Sequence record: PQ516281
Length of the DNA stretch: 64,000 bases
Direction: 5' to 3' (one strand)
Source: Escherichia phage vB_EQ1
The number at the start of each line of letters is the position of its first letter. The stretch's first letter is position 1. This document shows positions 53,018 through 54,414 of this stretch, in pieces. Under the pieces are notes generated by a model that saw only the letters and a list, made by a program, of their open reading frames with translations, ran no database searches and was not told the origin of the DNA. The position numbers and the translations under genes are program-made.

Positions 53018-53257
53018 TTATTTGAATTTCTTGGCAATGTTGATATAACGTAAAGCTTCAGAATCTATACTTCCAAGAACACTATGAAGGAATGCATCAG
53101 TGTAGTATTCCAATTGAACAGGTTCTTTAATCACTTTAGCCGCTTTGGTTTCAAACAGGCCCATAAGGGCCTTTTTAAGAATTTGTTCGTTAGTGTTCAG
53201 TTTAATAGTCAAAATCTCTTCGTTAAGATTATAATTAAAAGTTTTTCTAGAAATCAT
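53018..53257 (-). CDS. hypothetical protein
   Basis: ORF track 79 aa; GAGGTA SD; not obviously membrane, so not Imm-like. Confidence 0.55.
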   Translation of the reverse strand: MISRKTFNYNLNEEILTIKLNTNEQILKKALMGLFETKAAKVIKEPVQLEYYTDAFLHSVLGSIDSEALRYINIAKKFK

Positions 53258-54414
53258 TCCGGGTACCTCAAAGCGTCATCAGAGTTAGTTATATCAATAA
53301 TAGATATAGAGTTTTCTGCTAACCCGTTTTTAGATAACTGACGTTTATAATATCTTTCACAATATGTACACGTCGTCCCGCAGATTTCATTAGCACAATC
53401 GAAATCTGGATGTCTGAACCACCTTTTTTCTAAAAAGCCATCTAACAAAGAGGTTTCAATATTTACCGTATGTGAAAACTCGGTCTCATTTTCAAGAGTG
53501 AAAATGGTCTCTAAAGGCTTCCACAATTCTAACAAATTACCTTCAAACTTTTCAGAAGCGTATGCTTCAAGAACTTTCAAAATGTAGTCTGTGCTACCTG
53601 TACGTCCCGAAACTTTAAATTGAGTGATACCAATATCATTATAAAGTTTCAAATCTTGTGGACGAACAAAACGAGTTCTCAACCAGTTAAATGGGTCTGT
53701 ATCACGAGCTTTAATACAGTGCTGCATAGGATATCCATTTAAGGATTTAGCATCATCAGCTGTAACATCAGTACTATGGAAAATATAGCAAGAGTCACGA
53801 TAGCTACAATGTGTTGTATACCCTTTACCAGCATTAGAACAGAACTCATTTACAAGAACTTCAAATATTATATTGTTCTTATTGCAAAACTCTGCTGCAC
53901 GCTTCAGGAAAGAAACTGAACGGTTCTTATGAATTCCACAGCAGACCTTTTTGATATTATACTGGTCATGCAAGTATTTGATTTGAGTTACAGCATCGAC
54001 ATGTAGAATTGTTGAAACTTCAATCTCAATGTCTTTATTGACTTCACGAACAATTTCCATAACAACAGGGTTAGCGATAGTAATACGCCATACGCCTATT
54101 GACCAAAGATACTGAACATAGTCCTGAATAGCTTTCTTCTTCCACTCAACTAGTTCTCTTTTTGAACCCGGATTTATCGTGTTGAGTGTATAGTTAAAGC
54201 AAATACCTAATTCGTTACAACGTTTAACGTAATCTTCTAACATCTTTTTGTCAACGTCAGGAAGCCTAAAATCAGGTCTGGCTGCTACAAAAGCCATTTC
54301 TCTTGTAGAGCCGTATACTTCGTTTATCAAGCTATTAGGATAAGTTTTATTGAGCTCTACGATTTTATCAAGAAGAGCTAAATCAAAATTCGTTCCGATT
54401 TTAAAAGTATTCAT
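53254..54414 (-). CDS. Cys-rich hypothetical protein (modification cluster member)
   Basis: 386 aa with several Cys clusters (KKVCCGIH, EFCSNAGKGYTTHCSYRDSCY, CANEICGTTCTYCERYY); possible metal/Fe-S site; family unassigned. Confidence 0.6.
   Translation of the reverse strand: MNTFKIGTNFDLALLDKIVELNKTYPNSLINEVYGSTREMAFVAARPDFRLPDVDKKMLEDYVKRCNELGICFNYTLNTINPGSKRELVEWKKKAIQDYVQYLWSIGVWRITIANPVVMEIVREVNKDIEIEVSTILHVDAVTQIKYLHDQYNIKKVCCGIHKNRSVSFLKRAAEFCNKNNIIFEVLVNEFCSNAGKGYTTHCSYRDSCYIFHSTDVTADDAKSLNGYPMQHCIKARDTDPFNWLRTRFVRPQDLKLYNDIGITQFKVSGRTGSTDYILKVLEAYASEKFEGNLLELWKPLETIFTLENETEFSHTVNIETSLLDGFLEKRWFRHPDFDCANEICGTTCTYCERYYKRQLSKNGLAENSISIIDITNSDDALRYPE

Follow-up and report, generated by a model that had tools for sequence, protein, structure and literature searches.

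The locus examined here raises the question of what a cysteine-rich protein contributes to a phage DNA-modification operon. The gene lies in a stretch of 64,000 nucleotides of Escherichia phage vB_EQ1 (sequence record PQ516281), hereafter the window, and encodes a protein of 386 amino acids (aa) within an operon for arabinosylated 5-hydroxycytosine (ara-5hoC). The current work shows that this protein belongs to the U32 proteins, in a subfamily that is distinct and for the most part viral. Quite probably, it hydroxylates C5 of a cytosine nucleotide with prephenate and without O2. Its iron-sulfur (Fe-S) binding, its use of prephenate, its independence of O2, its substrate and its product are what we infer from family, fold, metal-ligand pattern, purifying selection, gene neighbourhoods and phyletic pattern.

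No paper proposing a prephenate-dependent hydroxylase function for a phage U32 protein was found, He et al. 2026 (Nat Chem Biol) and Mahler et al. 2025 (Cell Host Microbe) being outside the searched texts. The papers on RB69, Thanatos and BrxU make no mention of the family of the gene.

The gene and its conservation

An earlier note, made from the letters of the sequence alone, had described a cysteine-rich protein of 386 aa at this place. The current analysis confirmed it: an open reading frame (ORF) of this length occupies exactly positions 53254-54414 on the minus strand, and the plus-strand frame across the same interval is full of stops. The protein contains 13 cysteines (residues 66, 72, 158, 159, 177, 192, 203, 209, 233, 340, 345, 349 and 352), a share of 3.4% compared with 1.09% pooled over the 47 ORFs of at least 150 aa in the window (binomial P = 4e-4), among which it ranks second for cysteine content. 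The gene is the orthologue of RB69p050, labelled 'peptidase' in the annotation, and differs from it by 17 synonymous and 2 nonsynonymous changes. The ratio of nonsynonymous to synonymous divergence (pN/pS) is 0.03, equal to that of core pathway enzymes, and the gene is under strong purifying selection. Across 221 phage records, the protein is 81-100% identical.

A poly-A tract is located just upstream of the start (54415-54440, minus strand), with 7 A's before the ATG versus 5 in RB69. An upstream ATG is in frame in RB69, where the protein is annotated with 389 aa (MQK-MNTF...); here the same ATG runs into a stop, and therefore the start of the 386-aa frame is used in this phage.

Membership in the U32 family

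Pfam Peptidase_U32 (PF01136) matches residues 94-286 (E=7.3e-11; 42.2 bits against a gathering score of 22.4), and hhalign aligned the family profile with an alignment of TrhP, RlhA and UbiU over residues 9-302 (97.5%, E=2.2e-11). The AlphaFold model is confident (predicted local distance difference test, pLDDT, 93; predicted template-modelling score, pTM, 0.91; 68 homologues) and has the TIM-barrel-like fold of the solved U32 member Mk0906 (PDB 5d88). A remote resemblance to U32-type enzymes, which had been offered only as a guess, was thus correct by family model, by fold and by profile-profile alignment.

The subfamily is distinct, with 481 representatives of 50%-identity clusters at E <= 1e-30. 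By equivalog cut-off and architecture, the protein is not an orthologue of UbiU, TrhP or RlhA. UbiU was the sole NCBIfam match, at 18.5 bits against a cut-off of 440, and hmmsearch of the family profile against E. coli TrhP, RlhA, UbiU and UbiV gave 15, 9, 6 and -1 bits, over fragments only. A sequence search of the PDB with the protein and the family profile returned nothing meaningful, the match to BIM1 being at chance level.

The U32 enzymes that have been studied genetically (RlhA, TrhP and UbiU/UbiV) all take part in prephenate-dependent hydroxylation (PMC5727448, PMC6599085, PMC6747719, PMC10990095). In 23S rRNA, ho5C2501 is not formed without RlhA, an enzyme that relies on the synthesis of prephenate and on Fe-S biogenesis (PMC5727448). 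TrhP forms ho5U34 in tRNA in a prephenate-dependent, O2-independent manner and is backed up by the O2-dependent TrhO (PMC6599085). UbiU/V hydroxylate ubiquinone precursors without O2, in parallel to the flavin/O2 enzymes UbiI/H/F, and prephenate is their proven oxygen donor, by 18O labelling (PMC6747719, PMC10990095).

Databases nevertheless name the protein as a protease: the GenBank and PHROG labels are 'peptidase', 'collagenase-like protease' and 'U32 family peptidase'. However, the name is historical, and characterised members are Fe-S proteins in hydroxylation. The genomic context is nucleotide and sugar metabolism, and the conserved residues are putative metal ligands rather than a protease triad; no catalytic residues are defined for the family. 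That the protein is a genuine peptidase or collagenase is scarcely conceivable.

Conserved cysteines and predicted metal sites

Two groups of cysteines stand out in the protein, each with four residues:

53716..53841, minus strand: site in the U32 domain, C192-x10-C203-x5-C209-x23-C233, putative [4Fe-4S] ligands, from conservation and the TrhP alignment
53359..53397, minus strand: C-terminal site, C340-x4-C345-x3-C349-x2-C352, putative second metal centre (Fe-S or Zn), from conservation

Among 121 homologues, C158, C192, C203, C209, C233, C340, C345, C349 and C352 are invariant and C177 is kept in 98%, while C66, C72 and C159 are not conserved. In 128 divergent representatives of the subfamily (23-47% identity), C192 is kept in 98% and both C203 and C233 in 100%; position 209 is Cys in 58% and His in 41%. 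The C-terminal cysteines C340, C345, C349 and C352 are kept at 94-95%, and C158 and C177 are conserved in close relatives only. These divergent members show that four conserved residues able to ligate a [4Fe-4S] cluster are present in or near the U32 domain.

The middle and C-terminal motifs picked out by the earlier note are therefore the functionally conserved ones. The C-terminal C-x4-C-x3-C-x2-C had been read exactly. The middle motif had been given as C-x11-C-x5-C and is in fact C-x10-C-x5-C (C192/C203/C209), as checked at the codons (C192 at 53839-41, C203 at 53806-08, C209 at 53788-90 and C233 at 53716-18). The segment KKVCCGIH is present, with C158 and C159, but its 'CC' pair is not functionally conserved.

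hhalign places phage C203, C209 and C233 at C170, C177 and C197 of TrhP, and Gly227 at the third canonical ligand position. UbiU and UbiV each bind one [4Fe-4S] cluster through four cysteines; most U32 subfamilies share the pattern CX6CX15CX3/4C, from which UbiU (CX6CX16CX38C) and UbiV (CXnCX12CX3C) also depart (PMC6747719). This alignment would be consistent with a [4Fe-4S] cluster held by C192, C203, C209 and C233, one ligand being displaced, which is also the case in UbiU and UbiV. A second metal centre may be located on the C-terminal motif, around which the model has pLDDT values of 87-95; this motif is absent from TrhP and UbiU. Metal or Fe-S binding, which had been suggested earlier from the cysteine clusters, is strongly suggested by the sequences because there are two conserved four-residue sites, with three positions matching experimentally defined [4Fe-4S] ligands of the family.

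Gene neighbourhoods and the link to prephenate

In the DNA of RB69, all cytosine is replaced by ara-5hoC. The thymidylate-synthase-like (TS-like) protein RB69 gp48 makes 5-hydroxy-dCMP (5hodCMP) with a flavin, and the oxygen atom comes from O2, as shown with 18O2 in a NAR paper of 2026 (PMC13326640). The Discussion of that paper cites RNA pyrimidine hydroxylation pathways, with no tie to RB69p050.

A search of IMG/VR and GTDB with the family profile yielded 52 viral and 27 genomic loci. Proteins within +/-5 kb were clustered and annotated, and presence or absence was then scored by hidden Markov models (HMMs) over whole loci. In the 15 Straboviridae loci, the TS-like synthase was found in 15, chorismate mutase in 13, a glycosyltransferase in 15, an AfhE-like enzyme in 15 and an SIS-domain protein in 11. 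In the 43 non-Straboviridae loci, which come from unrelated phages or anaerobes and have U32 proteins that are 37-55% identical, the corresponding counts were 0, 16, 28, 19 and 11, with a HAD protein in 19; a thymidylate-kinase-like gene was also a recurrent partner. The partner glycosyltransferase of these loci is homologous to the arabinosyltransferase of Straboviridae (1e-25 to 1e-31 with its HMM). A typical operon is that of locus L049, with glycosyltransferase, kinase-like, SIS, AfhE, 3-deoxy-D-arabino-heptulosonate 7-phosphate (DAHP) synthase-chorismate mutase, HAD and U32 genes on one strand. Since the TS-like synthase is absent from all 43, the U32 gene fills the hydroxylase slot, and its product is the only candidate for the base-hydroxylating step in the non-Straboviridae clusters.

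A phage-encoded DAHP-synthase domain fused to a C-terminal chorismate mutase was found beside U32 in IMG/VR and metagenome-assembled genome contigs (L049:8323-9387, L059:11076-12197, L045, L048 and L075). These fusions would be a viral copy of the entry step of the shikimate pathway together with the prephenate-forming step. In L034, a DAHP-synthase-like gene stands alone beside U32. An assignment of the DAHP_synth_1 domains near U32 to 3-deoxy-D-manno-octulosonate 8-phosphate (KDO8P) synthase was considered and rejected, as NCBIfam scores them far better as DAHP synthase.

Chorismate mutase genes are also linked to U32 within Straboviridae. Enterobacter phage Entb_45 has a gene of 79 aa that overlaps the stop of U32 and encodes a chorismate mutase of type II (CM_2, E = 2.4e-10, and several NCBIfam models). 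In the rearranged cluster of Shewanella phage Thanatos-2, an overlapping chorismate mutase still follows U32 (E = 8e-8). By tblastn, chorismate mutase adjoins U32 and the synthase in 56 phage records from many genera of Enterobacterales phages. The phage enzymes keep invariant R8, R25, K36, E49, S71 and Q75, which we take to correspond by position to the AroQ catalytic set (EcCM residues).

The operon in the window

The window belongs to an RB69-like Mosigvirus: over 6.6 kb, it is 100% identical to Escherichia phage MRostami-2023e and 98% identical to RB69. The modification operon is on the minus strand, between DNA polymerase and uvsX, and contains the following genes:

50811..51359, minus strand: thymidylate-kinase-like nucleotide kinase (RB69p045); synteny with RB69, PMC13326640
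51361..52260, minus strand: Arabinosyltransferase 1 (RB69p046:47), intact, 299 aa; synteny with and identity to RB69, PMC13326640
52260..52976, minus strand: TS-like 5hodCMP synthase, orthologue of RB69 gp48; Pfam Thymidylat_synt E=2.4e-15
53018..53257, minus strand: 79-aa ORF (RB69ORF049c, phrog_8601); its start overlaps the U32 stop (ATGA)
53254..54414, minus strand: predicted U32-family Fe-S protein, 386 aa, orthologue of RB69p050; Pfam, fold, hhalign
54472..54873, minus strand: HAD phosphatase, AfhF-like (RB69p051); synteny with RB69, PMC13326640
54858..56543, minus strand: bifunctional arabinose-5-phosphate kinase / UDP-arabinose pyrophosphorylase, AfhE-like (RB69p052:53), intact, 561 aa; Pfam NTP_transferase, PMC13326640
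56725..57360, minus strand: arabinose-5-phosphate isomerase, SIS domain (RB69p055); Pfam SIS E=5.7e-10

The AfhE-like protein also has weak matches to the kinase families APH and Fructosamin_kin, below their Pfam cut-offs. Here, single ORFs encode the glycosyltransferase (299 aa) and the AfhE-like enzyme (561 aa), both of which are split in the RB69 reference (ORF046/047 and ORF052/053); the intact ORFs support the view, already published, that the splits in RB69 arose from errors of sequencing.

The placement of the gene in a modification operon is therefore borne out, the U32 gene lying inside the ara-5hoC operon. A role as a sugar-modifying enzyme (epimerase or mutase), also raised at that time, is not supported, for the sugar pathway is complete without the gene in phages DLP3, Maestro, PspYZU05 and Bp7. 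In addition, the recurrent partners of U32 are chorismate mutase or DAHP synthase and nucleotide enzymes, not sugar-tailoring enzymes, and all characterised U32 enzymes hydroxylate aromatic or heteroaromatic carbons. The evidence points to the base as the target of hydroxylation.

A redox function has to be weighed at this point. RB69p050 appears in Table 1 of PMC13326640 as 'Sugar or heterocycle reductase', and the protein may be thought to reduce a sugar or heterocycle, or to carry electrons to or from an enzyme of the pathway, such as the flavin of the synthase. Two conserved four-cysteine sites would suit electron transfer, and in Straboviridae the U32 gene nearly always adjoins the flavin-dependent synthase. 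However, the 43 non-Straboviridae loci have U32 and no TS-like synthase to serve, the linkage to chorismate mutase and DAHP synthase would have no rationale, and no U32 member is known as a reductase. The published label itself rests on a fold match to 5d88, and the completeness of the sugar pathway in the four phages named above again argues against sugar reduction. We regard this explanation as quite unlikely.

The 79-aa ORF

The 79-aa ORF of the window shares slot, length and ATGA overlap with the chorismate mutase of Entb_45. It is not called a diverged chorismate mutase here. BLASTP against the Entb_45 enzyme gave E=7, hhalign against the phage chorismate mutase family gave 0.15%, and the AlphaFold2 model, all-helical and of low confidence, had no Foldseek match; Pfam and HMM searches were likewise negative, as given below. 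The ORF is a divergence hot-spot, with 91.7% nucleotide identity to RB69 versus 98-99% for its neighbours, a pN/pS of 0.23 and a pS about three times higher than that of the neighbours. It is shortened to 47-58 aa in many Mosigviruses, and may have arisen by decay of a chorismate mutase or as a gene that replaced it.

In Klebsiella phage Clarke_MM3 (L019), the small ORF is missing and U32 directly adjoins the TS-like synthase. The cluster of this phage is also variant in other ways: a nucleotide kinase gene is located upstream of U32, and there is no SIS isomerase gene between the polymerase and the AfhE-like gene. Phage chorismate mutase is thus frequent but dispensable. Prephenate in the phage studied here would have to come from host PheA/TyrA.

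Distribution and oxygen

The TS-like synthase is found in all ara-5hoC Straboviridae, and the U32 gene is an optional cassette of the cluster, which fits the view of the earlier note that the protein might be an accessory DNA-modification factor. A total of 373 phage records contain the synthase; 57 of them are from Acinetobacter phages and about 20 from phages of Rhizobium/Agrobacterium. U32 is present in 221 records, all of them, among the listed genera, from Enterobacterales or Shewanella phages. In these listings, phages of Acinetobacter, Pseudomonas and Rhizobium carry the synthase without U32. No U32 gene was seen on inspection of Maestro (Acinetobacter) and PspYZU05 (Pseudomonas), and Acinetobacter phage DLP3 is without it (PMC13326640). 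A strict rule that a facultatively anaerobic host implies U32 was considered and is ruled out by Bp7.

The 27 cellular carriers are almost all obligate anaerobes. They include Lachnospiraceae, Oscillospiraceae, Romboutsia, Clostridium, Ruminiclostridium and Eubacterium, as well as Cellulosilyticum, Phocaeicola, Bacteroidales, Desulfobacteraceae and Gastranaerophilaceae.

The genes of RB69 include nrdA/B as well as the anaerobic nrdD/nrdG. An anaerobic route to 5-hydroxycytosine would be needed because the adjacent synthase takes its oxygen from O2 and RB69 replaces all cytosine and carries nrdD/nrdG. Besides these genes, vs.6 of RB69 (L018:25064-25426) is a gene for a GrcA-like autonomous glycyl-radical cofactor, which suggests another adaptation to replication at low oxygen.

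The most distant cellular members (L084-L098, e.g. L092:251-3352; 27-32% identity) belong to Clostridia, Ruminiclostridium, Desulfobacteraceae and others. In 12 loci they are flanked by non-ribosomal peptide synthetase (NRPS) modules, and there are no nucleotide or pathway genes. They may perform anaerobic hydroxylation in natural-product biosynthesis. The functional assignment is not extended to them because of the NRPS neighbours and the absence of pathway genes.

The likely substrate

Several neighbourhoods bear on the level at which the phage enzyme would act. In L007, a 466-kb JGI contig, and in L010, the setting is that of a probable megaphage, and U32 directly follows a gene of the dCMP-deaminase family. 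A thymidylate kinase, a uracil-DNA glycosylase (UDG) domain fused or adjacent to DNA polymerase III alpha, and a weak QTMAN_N-like glycosyltransferase are located near U32, and no TS-like synthase or arabinose genes are found within 8 kb of it; the context may reflect a different hydroxypyrimidine modification. Another U32 relative adjoins NT5C, a deoxynucleoside kinase (dNK) and a nucleoside deoxyribosyltransferase. The contexts with deaminase, kinase, NT5C and dNK point to a mononucleotide substrate.

Two loci (L008:13227-14360 and L009:8422-9555) contain another U32 paralogue, highly divergent and 377 aa long, at a distance of 4 kb from the first. It comes after a radical-SAM/SPASM gene and shares a block with NT5C, dNK, a nicotinamide mononucleotide (NMN) transporter and a nucleoside deoxyribosyltransferase. 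In these loci, a GH43 protein with a dockerin, encoded near U32, suggests an anaerobic cellulolytic Firmicute host.

A prephenate-dependent hydroxylase could also act on another substrate (cytosine in DNA, dCTP or dUMP) or perform a second hydroxylation, in which case there would be no parallel route to 5hodCMP. RlhA and TrhP act on polymers, and the megaphage homologues beside dCMP deaminase, thymidylate kinase and the UDG-polymerase fusion make uracil chemistry possible. However, the phage protein is without the C-terminal extensions of RlhA and TrhP, and the genes around it encode enzymes of mononucleotides (thymidylate-kinase-like kinase, NT5C, dNK and deaminase). In addition, ara-5hoC is the only modified base in RB69 DNA, and a mononucleotide route feeds the existing kinases directly. 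Another substrate is therefore unlikely.

The U32 enzymes that act on pyrimidines all modify RNA, and RB69 encodes tRNAs of its own; the protein might thus hydroxylate host or phage tRNA or rRNA (ho5U34, ho5C2501) and tune translation, unrelated to DNA modification. Against this, no TrhP or RlhA orthologue model was matched in NCBIfam, where the single UbiU match was far below its cut-off, and TrhP and RlhA are already present in E. coli. Moreover, the U32 gene sits in DNA-modification operons of several unrelated phage lineages and co-varies with the ara-5hoC pathway, not with tRNA genes. An RNA hydroxylase is very unlikely.

The rival explanations are weaker mainly because they leave unaccounted for both the linkage to chorismate mutase and DAHP synthase and the replacement of the TS-like synthase by U32 in homologous operons.

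Proposed reaction

In the preferred reading, a C5 hydroxylase dependent on prephenate, C5 of a cytosine deoxynucleotide would be hydroxylated without O2, the simplest case being the conversion of dCMP to 5-hydroxy-dCMP. The hydroxyl would come from prephenate, as in RlhA, TrhP and UbiU/UbiV, and two electrons would be carried off by a [4Fe-4S] cluster on C192/C203/C209/C233 together with the second, C-terminal metal centre. Prephenate would be provided by the phage chorismate mutase in most genera, and by the host enzymes in Mosigviruses, including this phage.

In RB69-type phages, the U32 enzyme would work alongside the adjacent flavin/O2-dependent synthase as its anaerobic counterpart, so that 5hodCTP could be supplied for replication and arabinosylation with and without oxygen. 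Such a dual route would parallel the aerobic NrdAB and anaerobic NrdDG of the phage. In many phages of anaerobes, the U32 enzyme would be the sole hydroxylase. On balance, it is likely that a viral U32 protein of a single polypeptide converts soluble dCMP to 5-hydroxy-dCMP with prephenate, as one of two routes in RB69-type phages and as the only base hydroxylase in many phages of anaerobes.

Several points weigh against this proposal. The canonical CX6CX15CX3/4C spacing is not kept, the phage protein having C-x10-C-x5-C-x23-C, and the reductase label is the only one published for RB69p050. No U32 hydroxylase has been reconstituted in vitro so far (PMC10990095). The substrate might be dCTP or DNA instead of dCMP, or even a uracil nucleotide. 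The absence of the TS-like synthase from the 43 non-Straboviridae loci covers +/-10 kb, a gene farther away being possible, and one of these loci (L036) carries a canonical thymidylate synthase. The E. coli Dhakavirus Bp7 is without the U32 cassette though its host is a facultative anaerobe, so host physiology is no full predictor. Finally, the 79-aa ORF has no CM_2 match at E <= 10, and a chorismate-mutase HMM scan of the whole window found nothing; with no chorismate mutase in the window, the prephenate link for this phage rests on its relatives.

If the proposal is true, it fills a gap in a pathway published in 2025-2026, whose only known source of 5-hydroxycytosine needs O2. The gap matters because the hosts of these phages are gut bacteria, because no cytosine in the phage DNA is left unreplaced, and because the phages possess an anaerobic ribonucleotide reductase. 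Prephenate-dependent U32 hydroxylation, now known for RNA and quinones, would be extended to DNA precursors and to viruses, the first case of either. A large unrecognised set of sugar-hydroxypyrimidine DNA modifications would be predicted in phages of obligate anaerobes, some of which would increase their prephenate supply with a DAHP synthase and a chorismate mutase of their own. A monomeric enzyme, a cheap soluble substrate (dCMP) and an assay by liquid chromatography-mass spectrometry would provide a tractable system for a first in vitro reconstitution. Oxygen availability could also decide if the DNA of therapeutic Mosigviruses stays modified, and thereby protected, in the gut.

Comparison with known systems

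Among solved structures, the U32 'collagenase-family' protein Mk0906 of Methanopyrus kandleri (5d88; 247 aa) is 14% identical to the phage protein and has no counterpart of the C-terminal four-cysteine motif.

RlhA (YdcP) has a homologous U32 domain, and its product, a C5-hydroxylated cytosine, is the same as that proposed here. Besides prephenate and Fe-S biogenesis, it needs additional Cys in the C-terminal region, which are essential (PMC5727448). The 'Y-x-x-x-C-Y-x-x-H' segment around its second ligand can be aligned, RlhA C176 with phage C209. RlhA differs in its size of 653 aa, its two U32-type regions and its action on the 50S precursor, whereas the phage protein has 386 aa and a single domain; the C-terminal Cys motif of the phage protein is different, and the similarity is at profile level only (9 bits, hmmsearch). 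The substrate of RlhA is rRNA, compared with the deoxynucleotide proposed for the phage protein.

TrhP (YegQ) is the best profile match among the E. coli paralogues. TrhP and TrhO are two unrelated enzymes that make the same hydroxypyrimidine, one with prephenate and the other with O2, and the same logic is proposed for U32 and the TS-like synthase. TrhP is longer (453 aa), with a C-terminal extension, and has C170-x6-C177-x15-C193-x3-C197, in contrast to C192-x10-C203-x5-C/H209-x23-C233 in the phage family, in which the third canonical cysteine is missing. TrhP acts on tRNA uridine, and the phage protein would act on a cytosine deoxynucleotide.

UbiU-UbiV share the U32 fold, and their Fe-S ligands, mapped by mutagenesis, include one displaced ligand per subunit, as would be the case here. 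They are paired with the flavin/O2 hydroxylases UbiI/H/F for the same reaction, as is proposed for U32 and the synthase, and their two metal centres per functional unit resemble the two four-cysteine sites of the phage polypeptide. UbiU-UbiV differ in being a heterodimer that acts on a lipid quinone and requires the accessory protein UbiT.

The TS-like 5hodCMP synthase (RB69 gp48, DLP3 gp80 and the HY126 homologue) is encoded in the same operon and is the experimentally established source of 5-hydroxycytosine. Its fold is unrelated to that of U32 and its chemistry uses flavin and O2, yet the product proposed for the U32 protein would be the same.

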